Source of the DNA: Verrucomicrobiales bacterium
GTDB lineage: Bacteria > Verrucomicrobiota > Verrucomicrobiia > Limisphaerales > JAYPEY01
Assembly (NCBI GenBank): GCA_038126655.1
Contig: JAYPGD010000006.1
Coordinates: forward strand, 1 to 32,433
DNA: 32,433 nt
Direction of reading: 5' to 3'
The position numbers were made by a program, and so were the translations under genes. Positions 7,781 through 28,789 of the stretch are shown in pieces (position 1 is the first letter of the stretch; each line of letters starts with the position of its first letter). Under the pieces are notes generated by a model. That model saw only the letters and a list, made by a program, of their open reading frames with translations. It was not told the origin of the DNA and made no database searches.

Positions 7781-10513
7781 TCAGTTGACATTCTGGCGAG
7801 GTCGCGTCGTGGGCGGGGTTCCCGGGCGCGACGGAGGCGTTCTTGTGCGTGAGGGCGTGGAACGCGATTGTGGCGCGACGGACCTCGGGGTCGGCCGGTT
7901 GAACGTCGGACGGGACGGAGCCGGCCGCGGCGTCACCGACCTCGGCGTCGACGACGGGGAGGACTGAACGCGGGACTGCGGCGCGATGCGTGCGGGGCTG
8001 GTCGACCGGGTTGGCCGGTTGAACGTGGGGCGCGACGAACTGCGGGTGGTCGGCGCGATGGAGAAGCTTCGTCGCCCGGACGAGGAGGGGGGCGCGACGA
8101 TGCGGCTGGATTGCGACCGTGTTTCGGATTGATTGAGACTGTTGAAGGGCTGTGATTGCGTCCTGAACTGCGTGGAACGCGAGGTCTGGAAACCAGAGCT
8201 TTGTCGGGGGGAGGATTGGGCTGCCGGGCTGGGCGAGACCGGAGCGCGTCGGACAACCGTCCTGGTGGAGGTCGGACGGCTGGGCGATGGAGTGGCGCCT
8301 TGTCTTGTGGTCGGGCTGAAGCTGGGATTGGAGGTCGGCCGATTGGAGATGGAAGGGGCCGCCGATGGGCTTGATCGCCGCGGTTGGCCGGGCGAACGCA
8401 AGATGCTCAATGGCTGGGGCGTCGCCGGCTGTCTGGGCGTGGAGGTCACCGGGGCCGGCGGCGACAGAGGCTTGGGCGCGCTCGGGCCGGTCGCCTGCGG
8501 CCTTGGTGAAGCGGCGGACGAGGTGACCGGACGCGGCGTGGAGGTGACCGGCCTGGCGGCGGACCTGACCGGTTGAGGAGCGGTCAGTGTGCGCGAGGGA
8601 GCCTTGAGCGGCTGCGGCGAGGAGGTGACTGGCCGCGGAGTGGACCGCGCGCCATCCGGCGATCTCGGGACTGTTCTCCTTGCGCTTGTGGTCGATTGAC
8701 CGCCGGCGCCTGTTTGGAACGCCGCGATGCCCTTGGGGAGGGGCTTGGGGCGCTTTCCGGGCAGGGACAGAGCTGGTCGCGCGCCTGACTTGGGGCGTTT
8801 GGTTGCAGAGGAGAGGTTGCTTTTGCCGGATGTTTCCGCCTTGGCGGCTCCGGACCGGCTTCCTCCGACGATCATGCGTTGGGAGGCGGGGGAGGCGCTG
8901 GTGCGGCTGCGATTCAATTCGGAGCGTTCCCGGGAGCCGGTTCGAGCGCCGGCGAGCGTGCGGCCTCCCTTGTCCGCGGCAGCCGCTGCGGCGTCAGACG
9001 AAATCCTGGCGGCCGCGGAAGAACGCGACGTTCCGGTTGTGTCCGCTGATCTACCGCTCCGCCTGCCGGCTTCGCTGGAGCGGTCGCCGGAGCCTTGGCG
9101 GGGGCCGCCGCGGTAGATGGCGAGGTCGGAACCGTTGCGCACGACGCGGTCTGGACGGACGATCGAACGGTTTCCGGCGGGACGGTCGGCGATCTTCACC
9201 CTTCGGATCTCCTGGCGCGAGAGCTTGGCGATTTCATCCTTGGGGACGCCGCTGTTGACGAAGGTCTTCTGCCGGTTCGCGTGATGATGGTTGATCACCG
9301 AGGATTCATGATGGACATGCTGGATGCGGTCGCGAGCGACGAAGTGCCGGTGCGGATGGTGGGAATGGAAATGACGCAGGGGGACGTAGGTGTAGTGATT
9401 CGAGGAGAGTCCCCATTCGAAGTGAACGCCCACGGTCGAATCGTGATAGCTGAAACCAAAGCCGCTGCGGTAGCGGGCTGCCGGGGGCAGGGGAGCCCAT
9501 CCGCAGTAGGCGCTTGAACGTCGCCAACTGACCCAGGCCGGGCCCCAGGTGCGCCCCGGCGTCCAGACCCAGCCATGGAGTGTGTGCCGATGCCAGCGAC
9601 CGTAATGGAAGGGCGCCCAGCCCCAGGAGTAGTCCGACTGCCAATACCAGCCTTGATCCGTGTAGAGCCAGCGGCCGCGGTTGGCGTAGGGGCGCCATCC
9701 GGAATCGATCACCGCCACAGTGGGCTGCCAACACAAGCCGTAGGGCGCGACTTCCACCCAAGCGCCGTAGGGAGCCAGGACGGGCTGGAAATAGGTCACG
9801 GGTTCCGCGACCTCGTAAACGACGGTCTGGGTCTGGACGACGGGTTGTTGGACCGCAACCGTTTGCTGTTCGACCACAACCGGCGCGGGCGCGGCCTGCG
9901 CGACGTTCGGCGTTTCCACGACAACTTGAGGGGCGGTTGTTCCGGCGGGGGAGGCGATGGTTTCCCTTTGCGCCTGCGCCGCCTGGTAATCGGCGACCGT
10001 CTGTTCCGGCGCGGGCGCCTTCTGGATCAGGGCATTGATGACGTCGGTCGAAACGCCGATGTCGGCAAGGTAGATCAGCTCGTCCGCAGTGGGGTGAAAG
10101 GCCGTCGGTGAGTTGTTGATATAATTGAGAATCACCTCGTCGCCAACCTGCGCCTGCGCGAGTTTGACGACCTCGGACACTCCCGGAGACAGCTCGATCG
10201 GTTGAGCCTCGCCCGCGTCCGCTGGCGGGGGAACCGGCGCAACAGGAGCGACAGCAGGCTCAGGTTCCACCGCTGCGGGGTGCGGCGCGGATTGGACGAC
10301 CACAGCGGTCGCGGACGCGACCTCCTGAGGCCGGGTGACGGTCGCGCGGACGCCCCCGGCGTCCTGCTGCGCGACCTGGGGGATCTGCGCGTGTCGATGC
10401 ACCCTGTGCGGAGGATGTGTCGATGCGTATTCGTGATGATGACAGGCGGAGGAAAGCGAGAAGAGACTGACGCCGAGAAGCAGCGCAATTCCTTGGGTGA
10501 CGCGTTTTTTCAT
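7781..10513 (-). CDS. Envelope protein with a W/Y/G-rich YXWGXW-type repeat region and a ~450-aa S/P/T/R-rich disordered tail
   Basis: ATG at 10513. Signal peptide with a possible lipobox (LFSLSSAC). Core region GWRPYANRGRWLYTDQGWYWQSDYSWGWAPFHYGRWHRHTLHGWVWTPGRTWGPAWVSW. The C-terminal half is low complexity with internal repeats (SRPTFNRPT x2, RPVTS[ST]P x3). Confidence 0.8.
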   Translation of the reverse strand: MKKRVTQGIALLLGVSLFSLSSACHHHEYASTHPPHRVHRHAQIPQVAQQDAGGVRATVTRPQEVASATAVVVQSAPHPAAVEPEPAVAPVAPVPPPADAGEAQPIELSPGVSEVVKLAQAQVGDEVILNYINNSPTAFHPTADELIYLADIGVSTDVINALIQKAPAPEQTVADYQAAQAQRETIASPAGTTAPQVVVETPNVAQAAPAPVVVEQQTVAVQQPVVQTQTVVYEVAEPVTYFQPVLAPYGAWVEVAPYGLCWQPTVAVIDSGWRPYANRGRWLYTDQGWYWQSDYSWGWAPFHYGRWHRHTLHGWVWTPGRTWGPAWVSWRRSSAYCGWAPLPPAARYRSGFGFSYHDSTVGVHFEWGLSSNHYTYVPLRHFHSHHPHRHFVARDRIQHVHHESSVINHHHANRQKTFVNSGVPKDEIAKLSRQEIRRVKIADRPAGNRSIVRPDRVVRNGSDLAIYRGGPRQGSGDRSSEAGRRSGRSADTTGTSRSSAAARISSDAAAAAADKGGRTLAGARTGSRERSELNRSRTSASPASQRMIVGGSRSGAAKAETSGKSNLSSATKRPKSGARPALSLPGKRPKPLPKGIAAFQTGAGGQSTTSARRTVPRSPDGARSTPRPVTSSPQPLKAPSRTLTAPQPVRSAARPVTSTPRPVTSSAASPRPQATGPSAPKPLSPPAPVTSTPRQPATPQPLSILRSPGQPRRSSPSAAPSISNRPTSNPSFSPTTRQGATPSPSRPTSTRTVVRRAPVSPSPAAQSSPRQSSGFQTSRSTQFRTQSQPFNSLNQSETRSQSSRIVAPPSSSGRRSFSIAPTTRSSSRPTFNRPTRSTSPARIAPQSRVQSSPSSTPRSVTPRPAPSRPTFNRPTPRSVAPQSRSTPSRTRTPPSRPGTPPTTRPRQNVN

Positions 10514-10794: not shown

Positions 10795-10884
10795 GGAGAG
10801 GTGGCTGAGTGGTTTAAGGCGCGCGCCTGGAAAGCGCGTGCACTGGAAACGGTGTCGCGGGTTCGAATCCCGCCCTCTCCGCCA
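10795..10884 (+). tRNA. tRNA-Ser (anticodon GGA)
   Basis: Acceptor stem GGAGAGG/CCTCTCC. Anticodon stem CGCGC/GCGCG with loop CUGGAAA (GGA). Long variable arm (tgcactggaaacggtgtc) typical of class II tRNA. T-arm GCGGGTTCGAATCCCGC, discriminator G and encoded CCA. Confidence 0.93.
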
Positions 10885-16858: not shown

Positions 16859-17815
16859 TCAGCGCAGCGCGGCCACGCGGAATTCGTGCACCAGTTTGGG
16901 GCGTTCGCCAGCGCGGACGACCCCGGTAAAGTCCCGTGATTTGCCGCGCACCAGCACGCGGACGACGAAGCGCGTGGGATCGGGCGCGCCGTTGCTGCGG
17001 TAGTGATGCACGAACACGCGATACCGGCCGGCCGGAGCGCCTTTCTCGGGCCAGTAGACATTCTCCACCGGTTTCTGGGTGAGCGGGCGCTGGGCGTTGC
17101 GATCGATGTCGAGTTCGCCGCCGGAACGGACCTTGCGGTTGAGGTAGAAGATCTGGTCGCCGCGCGGATCGAAGACGTGGAGGTCGAGATCGTTCACGTT
17201 GTTCCACATGAGCGAGATGCGGATGTCGCCGGAGCGGGCGCCGGCCGCGGCGAGTCGGGCCTCGAAGCTGTCGCTGAGCATGACGATGTTGGTCATGCGG
17301 GGCAGGTCGGCGAGGGTGAGGCTGCCCATGTTTGCATCCATTTCCATGGGGGAGGAACTGCCGGAGTTCTCCGGCAGGGACATCTCGCCCTCGCCGGCGC
17401 GGGAGACGACCTCGCCGGCCATGGCCGCTTTCTGGTCGTTGCCGGGATTGCGTCGGCGATCCGGATTGCCCATGGCGCCGAACTCGATCGCCTGTTCCTC
17501 CTCGAGGCTGGCGGGGCCGGACATCTGGTTGCCAAAGACCGCGCCCGCGCCGCCGCCGGCTCCAGCGCGCAGGGAGGGGAACAGGATCCAGAGAATCACG
17601 ATGGCCAGCATGATCAGGACAGAGGCGGTGGTGATGGTCTTGTCCTGCCAGGGTTTGCGGTATTCGTCGTTGGGATCGAGGCCGTTGTCCGGCAGCGCGG
17701 CGGAAAGGTCGGTGAACTGCAACGGGACGCCGCAATGGGGGCAGTCGACGACGGTCACGCCGGCCTCGTCAAGGAGGTCGATCAATTGTCCGCAACTGTA
17801 GCAGCACTGTTGCAT
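16859..17815 (-). CDS. Zinc-ribbon / TM / DUF2135 (YfaP)-like domain protein (cluster gene 7)
   Basis: N-terminal CYSCG...CPHCG zinc ribbon. TM ASVLIMLAIVILWILF. C-terminal domain ISLMWNNVNDLDLHVFDPRGDQIFYLNRKVRSGGELDIDRN...GRYRVFVHHY matches the DLDLHV...GG.LD.D signature I associate with DUF2135/YfaP. Confidence 0.75.
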   Translation of the reverse strand: MQQCCYSCGQLIDLLDEAGVTVVDCPHCGVPLQFTDLSAALPDNGLDPNDEYRKPWQDKTITTASVLIMLAIVILWILFPSLRAGAGGGAGAVFGNQMSGPASLEEEQAIEFGAMGNPDRRRNPGNDQKAAMAGEVVSRAGEGEMSLPENSGSSSPMEMDANMGSLTLADLPRMTNIVMLSDSFEARLAAAGARSGDIRISLMWNNVNDLDLHVFDPRGDQIFYLNRKVRSGGELDIDRNAQRPLTQKPVENVYWPEKGAPAGRYRVFVHHYRSNGAPDPTRFVVRVLVRGKSRDFTGVVRAGERPKLVHEFRVAALR

Positions 17816-17821
17816 GGCAGA

Positions 17822-18760
17822 CTAAAGTGGCGGGGGCGGGGGCGCGCCGCCGCCAAATCCCATCATGATGCGGGCGTCGTCTTCCAGCGGCGCCCAGGAG
17901 AGTTCGACGCCGAGGCGGCTGGCCGCTTCCTTGGCGATGTTGAACTGGCCGAAGGAATCGCCATAGACGCGGAAGACCAGATAGGCGTTTCGCGGGAGTT
18001 GTTTGTAGTAGTTCAACAGGCCCCGAAGATTGTTGGAGGGGTCGACGCCCTTGCCGGGGACGGGGCTGAGTTCACGGAGGTCCTGTCCGGCGGTCTGGAG
18101 TTGGATCATGCCGCTGTTGAAGCCGCTGGAGGCTCCTCGAGCGTAGAGTTGCACGGGGTAGATCCGGCCATAGCGGACGAGGATCTCCACGGGTTCCTTG
18201 GAGGTCTCGTGCTCGCGGGGGAGGCGGAGTTTGCGGACCCGTTGATTCATTTCCTGGGTCAGGCGCTTCTGGAGGTCGTCGAGTTCCGCGGCGAGTTCGG
18301 CATTGCGCTTTTGTTCCTCCTCCTCCTGTTTGGCCATCAATTGGTTCTCGGCTTCGCGTTCCTTCTTCATCTGCTCCATCTGCTCGACGGATTCCGCGGT
18401 CTGGACCAGTTCTTCCTGGGCGGTTTGCAGTTCCTTCTTCAAATCGTCGAAGGCGTCGGCGACGTCTTCGCGTCGTTCCAGCAGTTTGATCTGTTCGGAG
18501 CGGCCGGGGTCGCCGAGTTGGGCGGCGAGCTTCTGATTGAAGATTTGCGCCTGGTTCAGCTCCTCCTTCGCCTGTTGCAGCTTCTTCTCCAGCATTTCCT
18601 TCGCCTTGATGTCCGCTTCGGTGACCGTCTTCGCTGTTTCCGAATCACGCGCGATCAAGGAGATCAGCAGCGCGATCAGGATGATGCCGCCAAAGAGGTT
18701 GCACATCGTGTCGAGCAACATCTCAAGACTGTCGGACTGTTCTGGCAGGCGGCGGGGCAT
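17822..18760 (-). CDS. ExbD/TolR/MotB-like protein with coiled-coil spacer (cluster gene 6, paralog of gene 5)
   Basis: N-terminal TM with an embedded Asp (LEMLLDTMCNLFGGIILIALLI, D17). About 150 aa of heptad-like charged helix (EELNQAQ..., KKELQTAQEEL...). C-terminal globular region AYLVFRVYGDSFGQFNIAKEAASRLGVELSWAPLEDD resembles an ExbD-type periplasmic domain. Confidence 0.72.
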   Translation of the reverse strand: MPRRLPEQSDSLEMLLDTMCNLFGGIILIALLISLIARDSETAKTVTEADIKAKEMLEKKLQQAKEELNQAQIFNQKLAAQLGDPGRSEQIKLLERREDVADAFDDLKKELQTAQEELVQTAESVEQMEQMKKEREAENQLMAKQEEEEQKRNAELAAELDDLQKRLTQEMNQRVRKLRLPREHETSKEPVEILVRYGRIYPVQLYARGASSGFNSGMIQLQTAGQDLRELSPVPGKGVDPSNNLRGLLNYYKQLPRNAYLVFRVYGDSFGQFNIAKEAASRLGVELSWAPLEDDARIMMGFGGGAPPPPPL

Positions 18761-18812
18761 GGCGGCGACGGGGCGGAGACCCGTGATGGCAAAGGGTCAA
18801 TGGCAAATGGCT

Positions 18813-18875
18813 GCTGGCTGCTGGTTGCTGGTTGCTGGTTGCTGGTTGCTGGTTGCTGGTTGCTGGTTGCTGGTT
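18813..18875. repeat. Tandem heptanucleotide repeat (GCTGGTT)n
   Basis: One degenerate unit (gctggct) followed by 8 perfect gctggtt units at 18820-18875, in the 153-nt spacer between cluster genes 5 and 6. Confidence 0.95.
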
Positions 18876-18879
18876 GTCC

Positions 18880-18913
18880 GCCTTCGCTCGGAAGCTACGG
18901 CGTGACAAGCTGG
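18880..18913. repeat. GC-rich REP-like element abutting the gene-5 stop codon
   Basis: gccttcgctcggaagctacggcgtgacaagctgg. It shares the core GCTACGGCnnGnCAAGC and the 8-mer gccttcgc with the elements next to tRNA-Ser (10885-10985). Confidence 0.55.
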
Positions 18914-19765
18914 TTACCGGTTTCCTGCGCCTGGCGTGTCTCCGAACATGAGTAGTTTGTCTTCCTCGATGGCGTCGTAGCCCACGGTGAAGCCGGCTTC
19001 AAGGGCCTTGGCCTTGCAAAAATTGAACAAGCGGATGCCGGAGGGGCGGACGTAGAAGACGAGGTGGGCAGCCTGCGGATTCCACTTGCGCATGGCGGTG
19101 AGGAAATCGCCCGGGGCGGTGGAGCCCTTGAATTCCATCTTGGTTTCCGGCGCCGCGAACTTCTCCACACTGGCGCCGTCCTTGGACACGACGATCATGA
19201 GGTTGTCCTTGGTCTGGGGTGTGTTGTCCGGGATCAGCCAGAGTTGGTTCTTGGCGCGGATGATGGATTCCATGCGCTTCTTCATGTCGAGAACGGTGGT
19301 CTGCATGTTCTCGTTCTCGTCCTCGAGTTCGCTCAGGGATTCCTTCTCCTTGTCGTTCTTGGTCAAGCCGAGTTGCGCGGCGAGGGCGGCGGCTTCGAAT
19401 TGCTTGTGCTGGAGTTTCTTCTGCGTGAGTTCCAGTTCGCGTTTCACGTCGCTGACCTGCCGTTTGATGGTGTCGATCTCCTGGTCGAGGCGTTCGGTGT
19501 TCGGCGCGGAGGCGGCGTCGGTGAGCAGCATTTGCCGGGCCTTGTTCTCCGAGTTGACCCGACTCAGTTCCTCCAGGATTTCGTTCAACTCGGTCATCAA
19601 CGGATCCTCCCGTGTGCCGTCGCCCTTGGAGAAGGCGGAGGGATTGTTGATGAAGAGCGTCAGAATGAGTGTGACGAGGATCAGGATGCCGGTGATCGCC
19701 GTAATGATATCCTGAAAGGCAAAGAAACTGACCTTCTGGGCGGCGATTTTGCGACGACGGGCCAT
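18914..19765 (-). CDS. ExbD/TolR/MotB-like protein with coiled-coil spacer (cluster gene 5)
   Basis: N-terminal basic stretch, then a TM with an embedded Asp (FFAFQDIITAITGILILVTLILTLF, D19). Long charged helical region. C-terminal AHLVFYVRPSGIRLFNFCKAKALEAGFTVGYDAIEED aligns with the C-terminus of the 17822-18760 product. Confidence 0.72.
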   Translation of the reverse strand: MARRRKIAAQKVSFFAFQDIITAITGILILVTLILTLFINNPSAFSKGDGTREDPLMTELNEILEELSRVNSENKARQMLLTDAASAPNTERLDQEIDTIKRQVSDVKRELELTQKKLQHKQFEAAALAAQLGLTKNDKEKESLSELEDENENMQTTVLDMKKRMESIIRAKNQLWLIPDNTPQTKDNLMIVVSKDGASVEKFAAPETKMEFKGSTAPGDFLTAMRKWNPQAAHLVFYVRPSGIRLFNFCKAKALEAGFTVGYDAIEEDKLLMFGDTPGAGNR

Positions 19766-19820
19766 GGACGTACAGAGCGTTCAGGTGGTGGAGGCGGGGC
19801 GGGGGGGATGCTGGTGAAAA

Positions 19821-19877
19821 GCTCCAAATCCCAAGCTCCAAATCCCAGACAAATCCCAGGTTCCAAGCTCCAAATGG
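19821..19877. repeat. Short tandem/interspersed repeat (GCTCCAAATCCCAR)
   Basis: gctccaaatcccaa (19821-19834), gctccaaatcccag (19835-19848), the partial copy acaaatcccagg, then gctccaaatgg (19867-19877). It lies in the 190-nt spacer between cluster genes 4 and 5 and is preceded by a G-run (19793-19807). Confidence 0.85.
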
Positions 19878-19955
19878 CGTTGGCGCGCCCCTCTGCGGAG
19901 GGGGGCTGATGAAGGGCGGCGTCGGCGGCCGCTGAAGCTCGGGGTTTTCACGCTT

Positions 19956-20924
19956 TCAGCCTTTTCTTTCGCCCCCTCCGTGGTCCTCATGATCATGCCG
20001 CTCGAGGCGGAGTTTGGACATGATATGGGAGTGGCAGTAGTCGTTGCACTCGTCAAGGAAGGCCGTCTCCTTCTGCTGGATGAAGGTGATGGCAAGCTGG
20101 ATGATCAGGGCCAGCACCAGCGCCACAAGCGTCGTTTCAAACGCCGAGGCCAGGCCGCCTGTGACTTCCTGAAGGCTGCCCTTGATGGCGTTCAGATCGT
20201 CGGAGGATTGCAGGGTGTTGGTGAACCCGCCAATGGCCAGGCTGAGTCCGCGCACCGTGCCGATGAAGCCGATGACCGGGATCGACCACACCATGCCGTT
20301 GACCAATGTGAAGCTGGAAGCCATCTGGTCCTCGTCGTTTTCCGCCTGCGACTTGATGATCGTGGACACCTCGGTGATGCCGCCGAGGTTGCTGAGATTG
20401 CTCAGGGCGCGCTCGATGCGGTTGAACAACACGAAGTGCCGCGGATGGTCGACGAGGTTGTGGATGCGGTTCAGCACGGTCTTGGCCGTGGCCTCGGTGA
20501 TGACGAAGTCGGCCTGCTGGGGCACGGCGGTCAGGTCCAGCGCCTTGGCCTGGAAGGACACCTTGCGCGACTTCAGGAACAGGATGGTGATCGACCAGAA
20601 GAAGAAGAAGGCGCAGGGGCCGGTGAACCAGGTGTTGTCCTTGCGGATCAGCGGCAGGGTGAACTTGTGCGCCGAGTCGATGGGATCGAGCGCGAAGACG
20701 ATCAACGCGAAGAAGGCCGCGGTCAGCGCCATGGCGAGCACGAAGCTCAGGACCTTGTTGACGTTGCTGTAGCGGCCGCCGCGAAAGAAGCCGAAGCGGT
20801 TCTCAATGTCCTGTTCGATCCAGCTCAGGCTCTCGACGCCCTTGGTCGAAATGTCGTCGATGGGCGAGCGTCCCGCTTTGGTTTGTTTCTTTGGTGAAGG
20901 TTCCATTTGTTCATCCGTGTCCAT
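19956..20924 (-). CDS. MotA/TolQ/ExbB-family proton channel protein (cluster gene 4)
   Basis: Four predicted TMs. Family signature IPVIGFIGTVRGL (compare the ExbB/TolQ LGLLGTVxGI) followed by GLASAFETTLVALVLALIIQLAITF (compare GIAEAL..T..GL). 322 aa, with no long C-terminal tail. Confidence 0.88.
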   Translation of the reverse strand: MDTDEQMEPSPKKQTKAGRSPIDDISTKGVESLSWIEQDIENRFGFFRGGRYSNVNKVLSFVLAMALTAAFFALIVFALDPIDSAHKFTLPLIRKDNTWFTGPCAFFFFWSITILFLKSRKVSFQAKALDLTAVPQQADFVITEATAKTVLNRIHNLVDHPRHFVLFNRIERALSNLSNLGGITEVSTIIKSQAENDEDQMASSFTLVNGMVWSIPVIGFIGTVRGLSLAIGGFTNTLQSSDDLNAIKGSLQEVTGGLASAFETTLVALVLALIIQLAITFIQQKETAFLDECNDYCHSHIMSKLRLERHDHEDHGGGERKG

Positions 20925-20933
20925 CCGTGGTTG

Positions 20934-21482
20934 CTACTTCATGGCAAAGCCGCGGCCGTCGCGCCAGACGAAGATGACTTCGATGGCGGGCCAGAAGCCG
21001 AGCCAGAGGGTGGTCCAGCCGAGTGATACGAAGGTGAGCGCAATCGCAATCTGCAGGGCGCCGATCAGCCAACGGCTCGCGTAGAGGTTGTGCAATCCCA
21101 AACCGACGCCCGCGTAGACCAAGGCTGCGGGGGCTTCGGCGGCGGCGAACAAGGCGATGATCAGGCTGAGCGCGGGATAAAGCAGGCCGACCGTCGCGTA
21201 GGCCATGCGCCAGCGGCGGGAAAGTCCTCGGGCCGCGGCGGTCGTTGCGGCTTCCTCTTCAGCTTCCGGCGTGGGAAGGACAATCGCCTTTCGTTTGAGC
21301 GCGCGGGAGATCTTGCCGGTGGCGTCGATGAATTCCCGGAGTGTGACCCAGCTGCCTTCATGCTGGATCTCGTGCCAGAGGCCGATTTCGTGCGCGTCCA
21401 GCCTTTCCTCAATGTCCGCAATGCTGAAGTCGCCGGTCTCCCGGCCGCGCCAGCGCATCGGATAGGTGGGCGTATCGGTCAT
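20934..21482 (-). CDS. GYF_2 (DUF4339)-like domain protein with four TM helices (cluster gene 3)
   Basis: ATG at 21482 overlaps the upstream stop (ATGA). The N-terminal W-x-G...G-FS...L...I...W-x-L-EF pattern (MRWRGRETGDFSIADIEERLDAHEIGLWHEIQHEGSWVTLREFI) is typical of bacterial GYF_2 domains. Four hydrophobic helices follow. Confidence 0.72.
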   Translation of the reverse strand: MTDTPTYPMRWRGRETGDFSIADIEERLDAHEIGLWHEIQHEGSWVTLREFIDATGKISRALKRKAIVLPTPEAEEEAATTAAARGLSRRWRMAYATVGLLYPALSLIIALFAAAEAPAALVYAGVGLGLHNLYASRWLIGALQIAIALTFVSLGWTTLWLGFWPAIEVIFVWRDGRGFAMK

Positions 21483-24451
21483 TCGACGAAAAGTTGGGGG
21501 AGGTATTTCGGATTCTCAGCGACGTCCGGGTCGTAGCCCGCGGAGCCGGCAATGATGCGGACGAGTTTCTGTCGATCGTCGGGAAACACGAACAGGGGGG
21601 AGAAAGGCAGCGGTTGGCGGACGGTGGAGTAGTCCCGGGCGGCCTGGTCGTAGCGGTAGATCAGGGCGGGACGCTTGGTCTCGCCGGCCCAACCCCAGAG
21701 TTCGCCGAGATTCATCGCGGCGTCCGCGACTGCGGTGGGTATCTTTGTGTCGGGGTCGACGTAGCCGACGAACTGGAAGCCGCCCTCCGCGGCGCGGGTG
21801 GTCAGCTTGTGCAGGAAGACGGCCTGCTTCTTGATCTCCACCTTGGACGCCTCGTTGAAATAGGCCGCCATCGGCGCGGTGAAGCGTTGGATGCGCTGCG
21901 GCACGATCCAATCGCCGGGTTGGATGTCGAGCACGCCCTGGTCGAGCAGTTTCTTGCGGAGCGGCTTCAGGGCCGGCGCCCATTGCAGGGCGAAGCTGTC
22001 CGGGCGGACATCCGTCAATTCGAAGAGACGTTGCAGCAGGTAGGCGCGAAAGACGGGGTTGGCGGTCTTGTCGCGGTGCAGGCTGTCGATGAGTTCGAGC
22101 ACGCCGGTCGTGTAGCTGGAATCGGTCCCATCGGCCAGGGCTGCTAGTCCGGTCTCGACGAACAGCTGTTTCTCCGGCGAGGGCCCCTGTTCCTCGAGGA
22201 CAAAGTCGGCTTCGGGAAACTGACGGTTCTCAAAGCGAATTTCATCAGGGGAGACCGCGGGGTCGTAGGCGTCGCCGGCGGGACGGCCGAATTTGTCCTT
22301 TTCGATTTCGCCGCGGATGTAGATCACGCGCGTGCGGTCCGGATCGGTGGTCGGTCGCTTCTTCTCCAGGATGCGGATGCGGGTCAGGGTGTTGAGGGAT
22401 TCGTCTTCGGCCAGCAGGCTGAGCGCGGCGCGTTCGGCCGCGGAAACCTGGGAGGGCGACTCGACCAGGGGAGCCTTGTTCTCGATGGTCCCGCGGATGC
22501 CGTCGTTCTTCCAGGCCAGGAGGTCGTGGATCATGTCCGGGATCTGCGGGTTGGCCGCGGTGACCTCGCGGGAGCGTCGGACGTTCTCAATCGGGGCGAA
22601 ATCGCTGGTCTGGAACTGCCGCAGGGTGGAGACGAAGTTGGGCAGGGTGTCGGGATCGGCGAGGCTCTTCTGAACCGTCTCCCAGGTTTCGATCTTGCGT
22701 TTGAATTCGTCGAATTTCCGGTTCAGGGCCTGAAAGCGGAAGGTGAGTTCGGAGGTGACCTTGAGTTCCTCGAGTTGCGGCGAGGCCAGGGCCTGGAGGA
22801 CGGGGAGATTGGCCTCGATCTCCTTCAGTCCGGCGCGGATGGCGTCTTCCCCCTTCTGGAGATCCAGTGAATCGCCAGCGATCTTCTCGACCTTGTACAG
22901 TTCCTCGCCGAAGCGCGCGCTTCGGGCCTCGCGTTCCCCGAAGAGCCAGGCTTCCCATTGATTGCGGCATTCAATGAGGCGGTCCTCGACGTCCGGCGCA
23001 AAGTCGGCCGCAACGGCCTGTTGGAGCGCCTCCGCCTCGGCGAAGTGCTTCAGATATTGCTCCGGCGAGAACTCGACGAAGCCGTCCTCGCCCTGCTGCA
23101 GGATCCAGAGGGCCTTCTCCTCGGCGAGGCGGCGGATCTTGTCTTCGCGTTCGATGAAGGAATTGGCCTTGGCGAGCGCGGCGTTGAGGCTGGGGATGGC
23201 AAGGAGGTTGACGTCGTTGGTGACGATCTGCTCGCGGAAGCGATGCGCTGCGACCGGTTGACGTTGGCGGCCGTATTGTTCCAGTTCGGCGGCGAGTTGA
23301 TTGGCCCGTCGATTGGCTCGGACGATGGTGACCGCGGCGATGGTGACGGCCATGACAATCAGGGTGACGGTCACCAACGCCAGCTTGTTCATGCGCTCCC
23401 GTTGGCGCACCTGGTAGCGGACCAACCGGAAATATTTGTCGAACTTCTCCTCGAACTCCTCGGGGACGGCGCGTTCGAAGCGCTGAAGCTCCTGCCATTT
23501 CTTGGCCAAGGCCTCGAAATCGGCTCTAAGTTCCGCCACGGGGCGTCTGCGGACGGCGAGGTATTTTTCCTCGCAGACATTGATGATGTGCTGCAGTTCG
23601 CCGAACGCCTTCTTGTAACGCCGGTCTTCCTCGGTTTCCTCGGCTCGTCGCTTGATCCATTCGCGGGCTTCCCTGAGCGCGCCGAGTTCCTTCTCGTCGA
23701 GATCGAGCTGAAACTCGGAGCGCAGCGTGTCCACGCGGTCGGCGACCTTGCGGGCGTCTTCCCAGCGGTCCTTGTCGCGGAGTTCGGCGAGTTGTCGCAA
23801 TCGGGCGCGGACGCGCACGGTTTGGGCGCGGCGCCAGAGATCGAGATCCTGGCCGGGGGAGAATTCCAACCGTTCCAGGGCCGCGAGAATTCCCAGGGTC
23901 GCGCCCTCGTCGTCTTTCTCCACGGCGGCTTCGAGCTTCTCCAGACGCGCGCGCGCAAACTTCTTTTCCAGGCGGGCGGCTTCCGCGGCGGCGTCGGCAT
24001 TGTCCGGCTTCAGCCGTCCGATCAACCTCAGGATGGCCAGGGCGCGGTCGTCGCGCCCTGACAGGATGGCCTGGCGATAGTCCCGGTAGAGCGGGTGCCC
24101 GGCGTCGATGTCCTTGGAGAATTCCTCGTTCAACGCATGGACGTGGTCGTCGTTGAAGGCCTTGGGGACCGGGTGGTCCTTGCCTTCGCAGTGCGTCCGC
24201 CATTGGCGTTCCTCGCGGAATCCGAGAACGGAGATCATGTCCAGCGCGGCCGGCGCGGCTTCGGCGAGATGGAGTCCAGCGGCGACCTGGCCGCCGCGGA
24301 TCAGCGCCACGGATTGTTCAAGACGCAGGTTGACTGCTCGGCAGACCTCCGCGTATTCGCGAGCCAGCTTGAGATCCTGGAACTGGCGTCGCGGATCGCC
24401 GAGTGAATCGACAATCTGCTGCACCAGGCGTCTGGCTTCGGCGATATCCAT
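21479..24451 (-). CDS. 990-aa bitopic protein: ~355-aa helical/charged N-domain, single TM, ~610-aa C-domain (cluster gene 2)
   Basis: ATG at 24451, 5 nt after the upstream stop. The N-terminal region is rich in Arg/Glu/Leu helices. TM LALVTVTLIVMAVTIAAVTIV covers residues ~356-377 (nt ~23321-23386). I recognise no family motif. Confidence 0.8.
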   Translation of the reverse strand: MDIAEARRLVQQIVDSLGDPRRQFQDLKLAREYAEVCRAVNLRLEQSVALIRGGQVAAGLHLAEAAPAALDMISVLGFREERQWRTHCEGKDHPVPKAFNDDHVHALNEEFSKDIDAGHPLYRDYRQAILSGRDDRALAILRLIGRLKPDNADAAAEAARLEKKFARARLEKLEAAVEKDDEGATLGILAALERLEFSPGQDLDLWRRAQTVRVRARLRQLAELRDKDRWEDARKVADRVDTLRSEFQLDLDEKELGALREAREWIKRRAEETEEDRRYKKAFGELQHIINVCEEKYLAVRRRPVAELRADFEALAKKWQELQRFERAVPEEFEEKFDKYFRLVRYQVRQRERMNKLALVTVTLIVMAVTIAAVTIVRANRRANQLAAELEQYGRQRQPVAAHRFREQIVTNDVNLLAIPSLNAALAKANSFIEREDKIRRLAEEKALWILQQGEDGFVEFSPEQYLKHFAEAEALQQAVAADFAPDVEDRLIECRNQWEAWLFGEREARSARFGEELYKVEKIAGDSLDLQKGEDAIRAGLKEIEANLPVLQALASPQLEELKVTSELTFRFQALNRKFDEFKRKIETWETVQKSLADPDTLPNFVSTLRQFQTSDFAPIENVRRSREVTAANPQIPDMIHDLLAWKNDGIRGTIENKAPLVESPSQVSAAERAALSLLAEDESLNTLTRIRILEKKRPTTDPDRTRVIYIRGEIEKDKFGRPAGDAYDPAVSPDEIRFENRQFPEADFVLEEQGPSPEKQLFVETGLAALADGTDSSYTTGVLELIDSLHRDKTANPVFRAYLLQRLFELTDVRPDSFALQWAPALKPLRKKLLDQGVLDIQPGDWIVPQRIQRFTAPMAAYFNEASKVEIKKQAVFLHKLTTRAAEGGFQFVGYVDPDTKIPTAVADAAMNLGELWGWAGETKRPALIYRYDQAARDYSTVRQPLPFSPLFVFPDDRQKLVRIIAGSAGYDPDVAENPKYLPQLFVE

Positions 24452-24456
24452 GGCAA

Positions 24457-26409
24457 TCAGGTCAGTTTCAAATCCGGCTCCATTTGCGCGAGCAGCCAGA
24501 GCAGCGGAGCGTCGACGCCGGTCGGCTCCATGCGCGCCGGATCCGGGGCAAGGCGTTCGTTGTCAATTCGTGTCGGGGAATGGCCGAATGAGCTGGCGGC
24601 GAAGTAGCGGACTTCCGAGGAAATCGATTCGGCGGCGGCGACGATCTTGGGGCAGGTCTCGCGCAGCAGGTCGCGCAGTTTGTCCGAATTGGCGTCGATG
24701 GCCTCGAGGTCGAGACGCTGGTCCGCGATGACGGGCTTCTGGTCCTGCCCGGAGAAGGCGTTCGACCAAGCGTCGTGTTTGCCGACGACCAGCGCGAGCG
24801 GGGTGTCGAGTTTGCGGTCGGGGGAAAGCTTGAGATGCCGCTGGGCGCGTAACAGCGTCTCCGCCAGCAGGGTCTCCTGCCGGTCGAGCGGCTTGCCCGC
24901 GGATTGCGGATCGACCTGGCCGTTGAGGAGTTTCCGGAAGTTGGAATTGCTGAAGGGATCGAACAGATACAGGAGTCCGGCCGCGTGCGCGATATGTTGC
25001 GTCCCGGGTGAATCGGGGGTGTCGGCGCCGGGCAGGAAGTCGGAGCCCTGGTTGTCGAAGAACGCGAGGGAGAAGGGGGCGAATGCCCGCGCGGGGGAGC
25101 TGACACGGCCAACGAAGGGGCGCGGCAATCGGACCATGCGACCGTAGCGTGAGACCGAATCGTAGGAGCCGTCGTCAACGACGGTCGGAGGGATGTGTGC
25201 TTCTTCCGGAGATCTGGCGCTGGCCAACGCGCGTTGCCGGGCGTTGATGGCTTCGTTCGATTCCGGATCCGCGTCCTGCAGGCTGATTTCGAACTCGCGG
25301 TGCAGCGTCTCCGGCAGGCTGCGGAGCAGGGCGGAGAGATAGTGGGATTTGCCCGAACCGACGTCGCCGATCAGGGGGATCATGCGCTGGGGCATTCCGA
25401 CAAATCCCGCGGGGAGTCGACGATGGCAATGCGGACAGGCAAGGTCGGGGCAGGGGAGGCTGAATTCATCGAGCGCCAATCCTTCGTCGTTGAAGCGCGT
25501 CGGCAGGAATCGTTTGGCCGCTGTTTCTCCGAGCAGCGGGTCGCCGCGCAGCGAATCATGAACTGCGATGTGCAGGATGTCTCCCGCGTCGAAACGCAGC
25601 CAGCAGGACGGGCACTGGAGCGGGCCTTGGTCGGGAAGCGCGGCGGGCGCGTCGCGCTTGAGATCCTCCCAGGTCACGTGGATCTCCTCGGTCGGTTCAG
25701 GCGCGGCCGGAGCGGCCGGCGTGGCGACCGGGATGCCGACCGGCACGGCCTCGGTTCCGTCGGATTGCGCGGGCGCCGCCGTGGGAATCGGAGGGAGATT
25801 GGATTCAGATTCCTGTTCGGAAAGGATCACCGGGGTGATCACCTCGGCGGCGGGAATGACGAATACGGTCCCGCCCTCGTCTTCCCCTTCGATATCGACG
25901 TCCGGGAAATCGTCGTCGGCAAAGGCGAAGTCATCCGACGCGGGTTTGCCGCTGCCGTCGTGGCCGAATTCATCCCAGAGATTCTGCAGATGAAACCCGG
26001 CTTTCACGCCCATGGGGCGGACGGCGGAGCGGTGGTGGCGTCGGTTCTCGCGGGCGACGCGGCAGAGGTTCAGCGCGGGCATGGGGCCGTCGCGCGCCTC
26101 GGTCATGGAGTCCTGCAGGAACCACTTGGTGTGATCCAGTCGCGAAAGCCAGGTCTCGAGATTCTTGCCGCCGCGCAGGGCGATGAAATGTCGGCCCACC
26201 TTCACTGCGTAATCCTCGCCCAGCGCGAGCTCGGTGTAGTTGACGGCCTCGCCGTTGACGAGGAGTTGGGAGCCGGGGCGCTTGTTGGTCAGGCTGACGC
26301 CGAAGCCCTTGAGCAGCTTGAGTTCGCAGTCGATCCCCTCCTCGCCGTCGCCCAGGTCCAGATCCGCGCCCGCTCCGCAGCCTATGTTTAAGGAGTTCTT
26401 GTACGCCAA
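24457..26409 (-). CDS. Divergent FHA / GYF-like / zinc-ribbon / P-loop GTPase protein (cluster gene 1)
   Basis: Residues 1-80 have an FHA-like topology (GSQLLVNGEAV...LGEDYAVKVGRHFIAL) but lack the canonical GR and SxxH residues. Residues ~95-147 are GYF-like (WFLQDSMTEARDGPMPALNL...). An acidic and then Pro-rich linker follows. CPSC...CPHC cysteine pairs are at residues 266-328. G1 is GDVGSGKS (nt 25345-25368), G3 is FFDNQG, G4 is VVGKHD and a G5-like AASS is present. The start codon is TTG at 26409 with no in-frame ATG nearby, so the start is uncertain. Confidence 0.78.
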   Translation of the reverse strand: MAYKNSLNIGCGAGADLDLGDGEEGIDCELKLLKGFGVSLTNKRPGSQLLVNGEAVNYTELALGEDYAVKVGRHFIALRGGKNLETWLSRLDHTKWFLQDSMTEARDGPMPALNLCRVARENRRHHRSAVRPMGVKAGFHLQNLWDEFGHDGSGKPASDDFAFADDDFPDVDIEGEDEGGTVFVIPAAEVITPVILSEQESESNLPPIPTAAPAQSDGTEAVPVGIPVATPAAPAAPEPTEEIHVTWEDLKRDAPAALPDQGPLQCPSCWLRFDAGDILHIAVHDSLRGDPLLGETAAKRFLPTRFNDEGLALDEFSLPCPDLACPHCHRRLPAGFVGMPQRMIPLIGDVGSGKSHYLSALLRSLPETLHREFEISLQDADPESNEAINARQRALASARSPEEAHIPPTVVDDGSYDSVSRYGRMVRLPRPFVGRVSSPARAFAPFSLAFFDNQGSDFLPGADTPDSPGTQHIAHAAGLLYLFDPFSNSNFRKLLNGQVDPQSAGKPLDRQETLLAETLLRAQRHLKLSPDRKLDTPLALVVGKHDAWSNAFSGQDQKPVIADQRLDLEAIDANSDKLRDLLRETCPKIVAAAESISSEVRYFAASSFGHSPTRIDNERLAPDPARMEPTGVDAPLLWLLAQMEPDLKLT

Positions 26410-26684: not shown

Positions 26685-28475
26685 TCAGTGATATTCCTGC
26701 ACGGTCTTCACTGAATAACCGTTTTTGCGCAGGGCGGCGATGCCTTCGGCGACGGCCTTGGCGCTGCTGAGCGTGGTCATGATCGGCGTGTTGGTGTAGA
26801 CCGCCGTCGTGCGGATCTTGACTTCGTCGGCGCGGGGCGACTGGCCTGAAGGCGTGTTGACCACGAGTTGCAGTTCGTTGTTCTTGAGGAGGTCGAGGGC
26901 ATTGGGGCGGCCTTCGGAGAGTTTCATCAACTTGCGGACCTTCAGTCCCGCTTCCTCAAGCGTCTTGGCCGTGCCGCTGGTGGAGACGATTTCGAAGCCC
27001 AGGTCCGCGAACATCTTCGCGATTTCGGCGACGTGCTGTTTGTGCATGTCGCTGACGCTGATGAAAATGCTGCCCGAATCCGGCAGCGCGGAGCCGGCGG
27101 CCATCTGGGATTTGGCGTAGGCGATGCCGGCGTCGGCGTCGAGTCCCATGACCTCGCCGGTGGAACGCATTTCGGGGGAGAGCAGGATGTCCTGGCCGTG
27201 GAAGCGGTTGAAGGGGAAGACGGATTCCTTGACCGCCCAATACTTGGGCCAGATCTCGTCGGTGAATTCCAGTTCCTTGAGCGTCTTGCCGGCCATGACC
27301 TGGGCCGCGAGTTTGGCCAGCGGGCGGCCGATGGCCTTGCTGACGAAGGGCACGGTGCGCGAGGCGCGGGGATTGACCTCCAGCACGTAGACGACATCGT
27401 CTTTCACCGCGTATTGCACATTCATCAGACCGATGACCTTGAGTTCCTTGGCCATGGCGTGCGTGTATTCGCGCAGGGTCTGGATGGTCTTCTCGGAAAG
27501 CGTGTGCGGCGGCAGCACCATGGCCGCGTCGCCGGAATGCACGCCGGCGAATTCGACATGCTCCAACATGCCGCCGACCACGATGGTCCCGTCGTCCGGA
27601 TTGTCGAACCTGCCGACGTCAGCGATGCAATCGACGTCGATCTCGGTGGCGTCTTCAAGGAACTTGTCCACGAGCACGGGGCGTTCGGGCGAGGCCTCGA
27701 CCGCGTAGCGCATGTATTCGTGCAGTTCGGAGTCGGAGTAGACGATCTGCATGGCGCGACCGCCGAGGACGAAGGAGGGGCGGACCAGCACGGGATAACC
27801 GAGGCGTTGGGCGTGTTCGATGGCCTCCTCCTCGTTCACGGCCAGGCCGTTGGGCGGCTGCGGGATCTCGAGCTTGTCGAGCATCGCGGCGAAGAGCTTG
27901 CGGTCCTCGGCGAGTTCGATGCTCTGCGGGGAGGTGCCGATGATGTTGACGCCGTTGGCCTGGAGGCCGAGCGCGAGGTTGAGCGGGGTTTGTCCGCCGA
28001 ATTGCGCGATCGCGCCCCAGCAGTTCTCGCGTTCGTAGATGTGCAGGACATCCTCCAGCGTGAGCGGTTCGAAGAACAGCTTGTCGCTGGTGTCGTAGTC
28101 GGTCGAGACGGTCTCCGGGTTGGAGTTGACCATCAGGGTCTCGAAGCCGTCGTCCTTCAACGCGAAGGCCGCGTGCACGCAGCAGTAATCGAATTCAATG
28201 CCCTGGCCGATCCGGTTGGGTCCGCCGCCGAGGATCATCACCTTCTTCTTGTCGCTCGGTGTGATCTCGTCGTCGCCGCGATCGTAGGAGGAATAGAAAT
28301 AGGGCGTGTAGGCCTCGAATTCCGCGGCGCAGGTGTCGACGAGTCGATAACTGGGCACGAGGCCGGCGGCCTTGCGTTCGGCGCGGATTTCGTCCTCGGT
28401 CCGGCCGGTCAGATGGGCGATCTGCTTGTCGGAGAATCCGAGGGATTTTGCTTTGGCTAAGAGTTCTTGATCCAT
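26685..28475 (-). CDS. carB: Carbamoyl-phosphate synthase large subunit, C-terminal half only (carbamoyl-phosphate synthetic ATP-grasp plus MGS-like allosteric domain)
   Basis: LAKAKSLGFSDKQIA (end of the oligomerisation domain), VMILGGGPNRIGQGIEFDYCCVHA, ATP-grasp motifs (VLVRPSFVLGGRAM, VLEVNPRASRTVPF) and the MGS-like tail (IFISVSD...VSTSGTAKTL). ATG at 28475 (MDQELL) preferred over the track start at 28574. There is no room upstream for the N-terminal ~500 aa. Confidence 0.9.
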   Translation of the reverse strand: MDQELLAKAKSLGFSDKQIAHLTGRTEDEIRAERKAAGLVPSYRLVDTCAAEFEAYTPYFYSSYDRGDDEITPSDKKKVMILGGGPNRIGQGIEFDYCCVHAAFALKDDGFETLMVNSNPETVSTDYDTSDKLFFEPLTLEDVLHIYERENCWGAIAQFGGQTPLNLALGLQANGVNIIGTSPQSIELAEDRKLFAAMLDKLEIPQPPNGLAVNEEEAIEHAQRLGYPVLVRPSFVLGGRAMQIVYSDSELHEYMRYAVEASPERPVLVDKFLEDATEIDVDCIADVGRFDNPDDGTIVVGGMLEHVEFAGVHSGDAAMVLPPHTLSEKTIQTLREYTHAMAKELKVIGLMNVQYAVKDDVVYVLEVNPRASRTVPFVSKAIGRPLAKLAAQVMAGKTLKELEFTDEIWPKYWAVKESVFPFNRFHGQDILLSPEMRSTGEVMGLDADAGIAYAKSQMAAGSALPDSGSIFISVSDMHKQHVAEIAKMFADLGFEIVSTSGTAKTLEEAGLKVRKLMKLSEGRPNALDLLKNNELQLVVNTPSGQSPRADEVKIRTTAVYTNTPIMTTLSSAKAVAEGIAALRKNGYSVKTVQEYH

Positions 28476-28789
28476 GGTGCCGTCAGGGGAAAAACAAACG
28501 GCGCGAAGTAAGCCTGAAAGCGGGGGAAGTGTCGAGCGCTTTGCGTTGGATCGGTCGGGTTTCGACTGATTCAAGCGGGGCGCGATTGCAACTGGGGGGA
28601 GCGCGGTTGTGTCCCGTCTTCGGGACCAGCCGCAGGGACTTGGGGATCGGATTCGCGCGCGGCCAGACCTGGACGCCGGCGCTTTGCTGCGCTGCTGCGG
28701 CTGGTCTCCGAAACAGCCGCGCTCCGTTCACCTTGCCTTGTCCCGGTTCCAATCACGTCCGTTCAAGTGTCAGTGTTTGCCGGCGCGAT

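Follow-up and report, generated by a model that had tools for sequence, protein, structure and literature searches.

A cluster of seven genes, designated g1 to g7 in the order of transcription, lies on the 32,433-nucleotide (nt) stretch of contig JAYPGD010000006.1 that we analyzed (assembly GCA_038126655.1 of a Verrucomicrobiales bacterium; the whole stretch is referred to here as the window). The cluster is built around a MotA/ExbB-type channel subunit, g4, and it does not represent a diverged form of any characterized stator system. Motors of the MotA/ExbB type, with 5:2 stoichiometry, drive flagella, Ton-dependent uptake, Tol-Pal-dependent division, gliding, and Zorya defense, and each new set of partners has shown this engine at a further task. 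The partners encoded here, i.e., two predicted coiled-coil B-type proteins, a putative scaffold of 990 amino acids (aa), GYF modules, and a DO-family GTPase, are without a characterized match, and the core set is fixed across the whole of a poorly studied phylum, the Verrucomicrobiota. We propose, and give the proposal an even chance of being correct, that the cluster specifies an ion-driven envelope machine, a 5:2-type motor with a heterodimeric g5/g6 B pair that is switched by a GTPase.

Seven minus-strand open reading frames (ORFs), all co-oriented, fill positions 16859 to 26409 of the window. Rederiving this layout reproduced exactly the coordinates and spacers reported in a first-pass annotation of the same DNA: in order from g1 to g7, the junctions are 5 nt, a 4-nt overlap, and 9, 190, 153, and 6 nt. 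The TTG start of g1 matches the start positions of its orthologs, and the G+C content is uniform across the region.

The channel subunit g4 and its candidate partners g5 and g6

The sole cluster protein that passes a curated threshold on its own sequence is g4, which matches the Pfam family MotA_ExbB (PF01618) with an E value of 2.5e-10 (40.6 bits; gathering cutoff, 22.9). It contains the signatures IGFIGTVRGL and ASAFETT that had been cited for its initial reading as a MotA/TolQ/ExbB channel. Among 21 diverse orthologs, P216, G219, G222, and T223 of the penultimate transmembrane (TM) segment (PxxGxxGT) are invariant, as are A261, F262, E263, and T265 in the last TM segment and the cytoplasmic tail motif DECNDYC. 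On these sequence grounds, the assignment of g4 to the MotA/ExbB/TolQ channel family holds. The protein ends about 40 residues past the last TM segment (322 aa in total), and its best PADLOC matches are ZorA models (E 4.5e-7), with the TM core alone covered. Within the tail, E..FLDECNDYCH, C293 and C297 are invariant and H298 is conserved in at least 90% of the orthologs. To our knowledge, a motif of the DECNDYCH type is not a known feature of MotA, ExbB, or TolQ; it could bind a metal or serve to dock a partner.

The g5 and g6 products are paralogous (hhalign probability 99.5%, E 1e-22, 277 columns) and have a common layout that consists of a short basic N terminus, a single TM helix, a long helical region, and a conserved C-terminal domain. 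Both carry an Asp at the cytoplasmic end, i.e., at the start, of the TM helix, and the early description of the two as paralogs with a membrane-embedded Asp stands. In g5, F15, F17, D19, and T22 are invariant in the 31 to 36 orthologs compared, and D17 of g6 is conserved in at least 90% of the sequences. With a single N-terminal TM segment, the conserved Asp, a predicted N-in topology, and a location directly after g4, the two proteins share the layout of B subunits. The helical region spans about 130 aa in g5, as taken from its alignment with g6. In the AlphaFold2 model of g6 (mean predicted local distance difference test [pLDDT] 84), the TM helix is followed by helices 48-81 and 85-173, a helical stretch of about 125 residues, which would measure about 18 to 19 nm from residue 48 to 173 if extended (0.15 nm per residue). 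The C-terminal domain of g6 is modeled with a pLDDT above 90 and the order β-β-α-β-α-β, and the periplasmic domain of ExbD (2PFU) has this order, too. As separate observations, g6 orthologs share a Pro-rich tail (PPPPL or PPPQ; window positions 17825-17850) that is predicted to be periplasmic, and some g5 orthologs are extended at the C terminus by long Pro/Ser-rich stretches that close with a conserved SWWQRLLEW.

The nearest relatives of g4 outside the ortholog group are MotA-like proteins of 450 to 1,030 aa, 33 to 36% identical to it, whose C-terminal tails are long and helical and which match ZorA weakly. In all three loci of this kind examined (L084, L085, and L086), g5-like and/or g6-like genes come next. 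Two of these g5/g6-like products are ExbD-sized (155 and 227 aa) and have no coiled coil, which lends some support to reading g5 and g6 as B-type candidates; the g5-like copy in these loci has a Ser at the position of the g5 Asp. One tailed MotA-like locus adjoins a giant kinase-CHAT-FGE-sulfatase protein. Such tailed relatives point to a wider, uncharacterized stator superfamily.

The GTPase g1, its usual GAP1-N2 partner, and the proteins g2, g3, and g7

The g1 product has no TM segment. The architecture of its family comprises an FHA-like domain, a GYF-like domain, a variable Pro-rich linker, a four-Cys zinc ribbon (CPxCW...ACPHC), and a P-loop GTPase with the motifs GxxxxGK[ST], DxxG, and GKxD, all three of which are intact in g1. 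Its relatives match DO-GTPase2 in Pfam (PF19993; 34 of 35, best E 3.4e-9), FHA (17 of 35), and GYF_2 (4 of 35). The window protein alone returns only a weak match to DO-GTPase1 (E 0.017), and it is 35 to 47% identical to family members that match DO-GTPase2. As judged by its family, g1 is a DO-type TRAFAC GTPase.

In nearly every relative whose locus spans g1, a gene for a protein of about 800 aa lies between g1 and g2. All 25 of the intervening genes tested match GAP1-N2 (PF20013; best E 6e-24), and Ig-type matches occur inside 5 of the 25. No GAP1 was found by tblastn anywhere in the window, where the g1-g2 gap is just 5 nt (24452-24456). The GAP1-less loci are that of the window and those of its four closest relatives (L004, L021, L001/L002, and L006), and all five are also devoid of the Walker-B Glu (hhhDxxGE): relatives read FYDNAGEHF and the window FFDNQGSDF, with GEHF changed to GSDF, GGDF, or GDDF within the group. 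From these sequences, the loss of GAP1 and that of the Walker-B Glu appear to be coupled.

DO-GTPases and GAP1-N2 are the core of computationally predicted "GTPase-centric" systems (Kaur, Burroughs, Iyer & Aravind, eLife 2020; PMC7159879). That study describes N-terminal zinc ribbons, membrane association, verrucomicrobia among the hosts, and a linked gene for a GYF domain on a TM-rich region. Since g1 is a DO-GTPase and GAP1-N2 is present in most relatives, the cytoplasmic half of the cluster can be recognized as a DO-GTPase/GAP1-N2 system. The linkage of a cytoplasmic GTPase to the motor, noted in the first-pass annotation, is conserved, but the GTPase is not the orphan it had seemed: it belongs to a named family and has a partner in most relatives. 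The text of PMC7159879 and one supplementary file make no mention of MotA, ExbB, TolQ, or ExbD, and a literature search found no other paper that uses the DO-GTPase/GAP1-N2 family names. Further searches, on DO-GTPase/GAP1 together with MotA and on surveys of stator diversity, found the cluster described nowhere, including one such survey (PMC12505986). The link of DO-GTPase/GAP1-N2 to a MotA-type motor appears to be new to the literature.

The 990-aa g2 product has one TM segment and is predicted to be N-in by the positive-inside rule (K+R of 5.3 on the N side versus 2.2 on the C side, 54 orthologs). Its AlphaFold2 model (pLDDT 85) is mostly helical with two small beta domains. Foldseek searches of this model against the PDB returned generic helical repeats and nothing at an E value of ≤1e-3, and the protein has no match in Pfam, NCBIfam, or PADLOC. 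The model is consistent with g2 being a bitopic helical scaffold. The GYF domain of g3 has the conserved motif W..G..GP...W..L, and 10 of 29 relatives match GYF_2; the multi-TM anchor of this protein is swapped among lineages (TM2, DUF4190, CD225, or RDD). For g7, 9 of 16 relatives match DUF2135 (best E 5.4e-5), and a g7 profile matched nothing in the PDB. These family-level results bear out what had been read from the single sequences, namely, a divergent-FHA/GYF-like/zinc-ribbon GTPase (g1), a bitopic helical protein (g2), a GYF_2 protein with several TM segments (g3), and a zinc-ribbon/TM/DUF2135-like protein (g7). The g7 family is present in only 14 of the 46 loci with enough downstream sequence, and g7 is a lineage-restricted accessory gene. 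The anticipated co-occurrence of seven families is therefore true of six, and the conserved unit is g1-(GAP1)-g2-g3-g4-g5-g6.

Conservation, inheritance, and genomic context

Synteny was counted in 80 genome loci, of which those with enough flank were scored; many of the taxon labels of the relatives are record titles of metagenome-assembled genomes, and some are clearly misassigned. The g4 family has more than 1,000 close cluster representatives (55 to 97% identity), 195 representatives at an E value of ≤1e-30 in a 50%-identity library, and relatives in at least 567 species (one genome per species scanned). An exact-sequence look-up placed g4 itself on no other contig. Among the matches listed, nearly all carriers are Verrucomicrobiota of several orders, accompanied by a few Desulfamplus and Planctomycetes, and the family is 45 to 70% identical between orders. 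The g5 and g6 genes lie directly downstream of g4 in 58 of 62 loci, where a stop codon often overlaps the next start codon; g2 lies upstream of g4 in 52 of 55 and g1 in 40 of 44, and a g3-sized gene is found between g2 and g4 in most loci. All-against-all clustering of the ORFs of 82 loci revealed the cluster families and GAP1 alone as conserved around the MotA gene, with no other conserved neighbor and no variable families around the core; the flanks differ from locus to locus. In L001/L002, g1-g4 are followed by unrelated genes. In Desulfamplus magnetovallimortis, a species of Desulfobacterota (L079; NZ_LT828556.1, 1732-16459), the gene order is retained: genes for a GTPase, GAP1, a 982-aa protein, and a MotA-like protein are followed by the g5/g6 pair, which is separated from the MotA-like gene by a 3.8-kb insertion. 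The L079 cluster suggests horizontal transfer out of Verrucomicrobiota and makes this species a possible experimental host. Within Verrucomicrobiota, vertical, chromosomal inheritance is the best reading.

The cluster is flanked in the window by housekeeping or ordinary metabolic genes: upstream by that for the carbamoyl-phosphate synthase large subunit and downstream by esterase, glutamine amidotransferase, aminotransferase, and T2SS-F-like genes. Scanning of the flanking ORFs found no integrase or transposase domain and no defense-system match.

This pattern bears on whether the cluster is an antiphage or conflict system, in which the DO-GTPase (with GAP1-N2) would sense invasion and the MotA-like motor would serve as an effector or transducer like ZorAB. 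We rate this explanation as rather unlikely; what keeps it in view is the DO-GTPase precedent, along with the relatives of g4 that resemble ZorA. The g1 family and its GAP1-N2 neighbor belong to a module published as a conflict system (PMC7159879), ZorA models are the best defense-library matches of g4, and the tails of its nearest nonorthologous relatives are ZorA-like, one of these proteins being encoded beside the kinase-CHAT-FGE-sulfatase protein typical of such systems. However, the cluster has no ZorB-type peptidoglycan-binding domain, no ZorC/D/E, and no nuclease, protease, pore, or other variable effector, and its other PADLOC matches are weak ones to the P-loop of g1 and the coiled coil of g5/g6. 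Defense systems are usually patchy and variable, whereas the gene set and order found here recur across orders, at the MotA identities and in the number of species given above; the flanks are of the housekeeping type, and no g4 relatives were found on IMG/VR viral contigs. We take the cluster to serve the envelope or cell surface in a housekeeping capacity rather than to act in phage defense, because the content and order of its genes are constant across orders, conservation is high, variable effectors are lacking, and the genomic context is of the housekeeping type. Among the three functions suggested by the first-pass annotation, Zorya-like defense is the least consistent with the phylum-wide conserved synteny.

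The two long spacers have features of their own. That between g4 and g5 is unusually long in the window and near zero in most relatives, and it contains a 14-nt direct repeat, GGGATTTGGAGCTT (2.1 copies, 19819-19847). The g5-g6 spacer carries, just upstream of g6, a perfect tandem array of about 10 copies of CAACCAG (coding strand; 18808-18876), the sole heptanucleotide tandem array of its kind in the window. At the same site, a sister species has 12.7 copies of another heptamer, CAGTAGT (L004:12186-12274), and a more distant relative has just 2.3 heptamer copies. The array is a fast-evolving microsatellite, and it could change the expression of g6. No terminator-like site was found on the coding strand of either spacer, and a promoter/terminator scan of the cluster performed no better than on shuffled sequence.

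Further observations concern the surroundings of the cluster. The carB ORF (26685-28574, minus strand) covers only model positions 478-1058 of the carbamoyl-phosphate synthase large subunit, and no N-terminal half lies directly upstream, so the gene is possibly split in this organism. Unrelated to the cluster are a 910-aa DUF6600 protein of unassigned function (7781-10513, minus strand) and a tRNA gene (10795-10881, plus strand), the only Rfam match in the scan.

Table 1. Features of the g1-g7 cluster, in window coordinates
Feature	Positions	Strand	Remarks
g1	24457-26409	-	650 aa, TTG start
g1 P-loop GDVGSGKS	25336-25374	-	
g1 DxxG	25024-25068	-	Ser replaces family Glu
g1 GKHD	24766-24792	-	
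g2	21479-24451	-	990 aa
g2 TM segment	23297-23389	-	Sole predicted TM; ~355 aa on cytoplasmic N side, ~610 aa periplasmic
g3	20934-21482	-	182 aa
g3 bacterial GYF domain	21309-21461	-	N-terminal; small multi-TM anchor, TM2-like in this lineage
g4	19956-20924	-	322 aa
g4 TM3 motif PVIGFIGTVRGL	20241-20279	-	P216, G219, G222, T223
g4 TM4 motif ASAFETT	20127-20156	-	A261, F262, E263, T265 (AFETT)
g4 C-terminal motif DECNDYCH	20007-20069	-	Cytoplasmic tail
g4-g5 spacer	19766-19955	-	190 nt; 14-nt direct repeat inside
g5	18914-19765	-	283 aa
g5 Asp19	19709-19711	-	In motif FFAFQDIIT, TM helix
g5 C-terminal alpha/beta domain	18917-19240	-	
g5-g6 spacer	18761-18913	-	153 nt; heptanucleotide tandem array inside
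g6	17822-18760	-	312 aa
g6 Asp17	18710-18712	-	In LLLDTMCN, TM helix
g6 C-terminal beta-beta-alpha-beta-alpha-beta domain	17825-18205	-	
g7	16859-17815	-	318 aa
g7 zinc ribbon	17714-17815	-	
g7 TM	17570-17644	-	Disordered linker after
g7 DUF2135-like C-terminal domain	16862-17260	-	

Proposed mechanism and comparison with known systems

From the gene content, families, conservation, and predicted topology described above, we infer a 5:2 assembly with ion flow, rotation, GTPase gating, and an envelope role as follows. The g4 protein would form a MotA/ExbB-like pentameric channel, which g5 and g6 would enter as a heterodimer via their two Asp-bearing N-terminal helices. In place of a short ExbD-type or OmpA-type periplasmic part, g5 and g6 are predicted to carry a helical region of about 125 to 130 residues and a small alpha/beta head, because of which the B pair itself could be the periplasmic shaft or force transducer. 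The paired coiled coil and heads would span the periplasm, and the flow of ions would rotate the B pair itself or put it under tension; direct force transduction has likewise been proposed for heterologous pairs of "transpore helix" proteins that bear an Asp and are encoded near TolQ-like genes (PMC12204202). The g2 scaffold would tie the periplasm to the cytoplasm and, together with g3, couple the motor to the cytoplasmic side, where g1 may be met by the N-terminal helical domain of g2, the g3 GYF domain, and the g7 zinc ribbon. In g1, a putative FHA phosphopeptide reader and a GYF proline-motif reader would be joined to a flexible Pro-rich linker, a zinc ribbon, and the GTPase. With GAP1-N2 in most lineages, g1 would decide when or where the motor assembles or engages.

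The closest working parallel is the Agl-Glt/MglA machine of Myxococcus xanthus, which has been studied experimentally and in which MglA-GTP and a Pro-rich partner bind the zinc ribbon-linker-GYF region of GltJ and thereby switch on the AglRQS-powered gliding complex, whereas recruitment of a GTPase-activating protein switches it off (PMC11135422). The cluster might then be a surface motility or adhesion machine of this very type, with the motor moving or tensioning envelope complexes and the GTPase setting polarity or assembly sites. The shared component logic, i.e., a MotA/TolQ-like channel, two different B subunits (AglQ/AglS), a zinc ribbon-linker-GYF arrangement, a GTPase, and bitopic proteins with sizeable parts on both the cytoplasmic and the periplasmic side (PMC11135422), speaks for it. 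Still, we find this explanation unlikely: Pfam and NCBIfam searches of the seven proteins gave no match to Glt outer-membrane or periplasmic proteins, to MglA/MglB-type proteins, or to AglZ-like ones, the GTPase is of another family, and many of the carrier lineages are not known to glide. The statement that Glt components are missing from the cluster, made in the first-pass annotation, was right at the level of genes but overlooked this match in logic.

Several results weigh against a GTPase-switched envelope motor. The g4 protein is highly divergent from all solved A subunits, the closest structure being TolQ at an E value of only 0.13. Neither the window g5 and g6 nor 36 g6-family members had a Pfam match to ExbD/TolR (PF02472) or to the MotB plug/OmpA domains. 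A full-length g6 HMMER profile retrieved only coiled-coil noise from the PDB and, in hhalign, did not match Escherichia coli ExbD or TolR; a profile of the N-terminal 50 residues of g5 returned zero PDB matches, and the short, coil-less g5/g6 relatives gave no ExbD/TolR/MotB match in the PDB either. In Foldseek searches of the PDB with the g6 model, TolR (5by4) ranked only 27th (E 0.39, not significant). Regarding the switch, the window clade has no GAP1 and no Walker-B Glu, which may mean that the GTPase cycle is altered or missing in this organism, and the sole published interpretation of DO-GTPase/GAP1-N2 is that of a conflict (defense) system (PMC7159879). Finally, with spacers of 190 and 153 nt, and with g5/g6 not adjacent to g4 in L001, parts of the cluster could be transcribed or function separately.

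The best g6 folds in the same Foldseek search were S11 and RNase H-like ones (E > 0.03, none significant); tblastn with ExbD/TolR over all loci was negative, and g5/g6 had no VWA match in Pfam. Since all sequence-profile tests failed and the fold matches were nonsignificant, "ExbD-like" is for g5 and g6 a positional and architectural label. It is unproven and relies on position, topology, the Asp, and the matching β-β-α-β-α-β order; the original naming of g5 as ExbD/MotB-like finds no backing in these tests.

Another explanation is that the cluster consists of two or more independent modules that are neighbors and nothing more, namely, a GTPase/GYF signalling unit g1-g4 with the MotA-like protein and a g5/g6 coiled-coil membrane-protein pair with g7, in which g5 and g6 would not be stator subunits. 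The two long spacers, the unrelated genes after g1-g4 in L001/L002, the insertion between g4 and g5 in L079, and the lack of detectable g5/g6 homology to ExbD/TolR/MotB fit such an arrangement. We nevertheless consider it highly improbable, given the frequency with which g5 and g6 directly follow g4, often with overlapping codons, the conserved TM Asp at the typical B-subunit position, the g5-like/g6-like pairs that even distant MotA-like relatives precede, and the spacers devoid of a coding-strand terminator. Returning to the GTPase-switched envelope motor, a bolder formulation would make the cluster a new class of ion-driven 5:2 motor, core to the phylum, with a long periplasmic coiled-coil drive shaft formed by the obligate heterodimer of B subunits and with an FHA/GYF/zinc-ribbon GTPase that, aided by GAP1-N2 in most lineages, turns the motor on or off or positions it. 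Such a motor would be a housekeeping counterpart of Tol-Pal or Agl-Glt and would reassign the DO-GTPase/GAP1-N2 system of this phylum from conflict to envelope biology. This formulation is tentative, and we would sooner doubt than endorse it as a whole.

The cluster may reveal how Verrucomicrobiota energize an envelope process. If the proposal is true, it would offer directly testable GTPase control of a motor powered by the proton motive force (PMF) outside Myxococcus, as well as a function for the DO-GTPase/GAP1-N2 module, so far untouched by experiment. For the switch mechanism, a ready comparison is provided by the window, with its naturally occurring variant devoid of GAP1 and the Glu.

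Among known systems, Zorya shares a MotA-family A subunit with the cluster, ZorA models being the nearest to g4 in the defense library. ZorA, however, has a long C-terminal helical tail, unlike g4, and the long coiled coil of the cluster is predicted on the periplasmic B proteins rather than on the cytoplasmic side of A. Identity with Zorya was rejected on account of the tailless g4, the lack of a peptidoglycan-binding domain in g5/g6, and the absence of ZorC/D/E (PADLOC, Pfam, and NCBIfam; seven proteins). The Tol-Pal and Ton systems have in common with the cluster a MotA/ExbB/TolQ channel with conserved Thr residues and an Asp-bearing single-pass partner, and among solved structures TolQ comes closest to g4, albeit weakly; the cluster differs in that its B-type proteins are of two kinds and a GTPase module accompanies them. 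Searches of Pfam and NCBIfam yielded no match to TolA/TonB, TolB, or Pal, and identity with these systems was also rejected. There is no SHLS motif in g2 or g7 because their TM segments contain no His. The first-pass annotation had drawn the same line, noting the lack of an OmpA-like domain, of TonB or TolA/TolB/Pal, and of Zorya C/D/E modules, and its conclusion that no characterized stator-driven system is matched survives these comparisons.

The likeness to Agl-Glt is one of architecture: in that machine, one protein of the MotA/TolQ-like kind and two distinct TolR-like ones make up a PMF motor, zinc ribbon and GYF modules lie on the cytoplasmic side of bitopic proteins, and a GTPase with its regulator exerts control (PMC11135422). 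The GTPase is the Ras-like MglA in that machine and a DO-type TRAFAC GTPase here; the GYF and zinc ribbon of the cluster are fused to the GTPase itself, in reversed order, and its B-type proteins have long predicted coiled coils. Neither Glt, AglZ, nor MglB was found, and Pfam and NCBIfam searches identified no Gld or Agl-Glt genes among the cluster proteins. In concept, transpore-helix vWA motors resemble the cluster as proposed here in the Asp helices that, within a pentamer, are fused to non-ExbD modules, in their heterologous pairs, and in the inclusion of Verrucomicrobia; the cluster has a coiled coil and a small alpha/beta domain instead of vWA, and no GTPase, GYF, or 990-aa partner is described for these motors (PMC12204202).

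The DO-GTPase/GAP1-N2 systems (PMC7159879) are alike in their g1-type DO-GTPase2 with a zinc ribbon, in GAP1-N2, which lies directly downstream of g1 in relatives of the window, in the linked GYF protein on a TM-rich region, and in verrucomicrobial hosts. Unlike them, the cluster is devoid of variable effectors and of a separate FNIII-repeat protein (no FNIII match in Pfam), and in the window it also lacks GAP1 and the family-defining Walker-B Glu. The phylum-wide fixed synteny of the cluster is at odds with the conflict role proposed for these systems.

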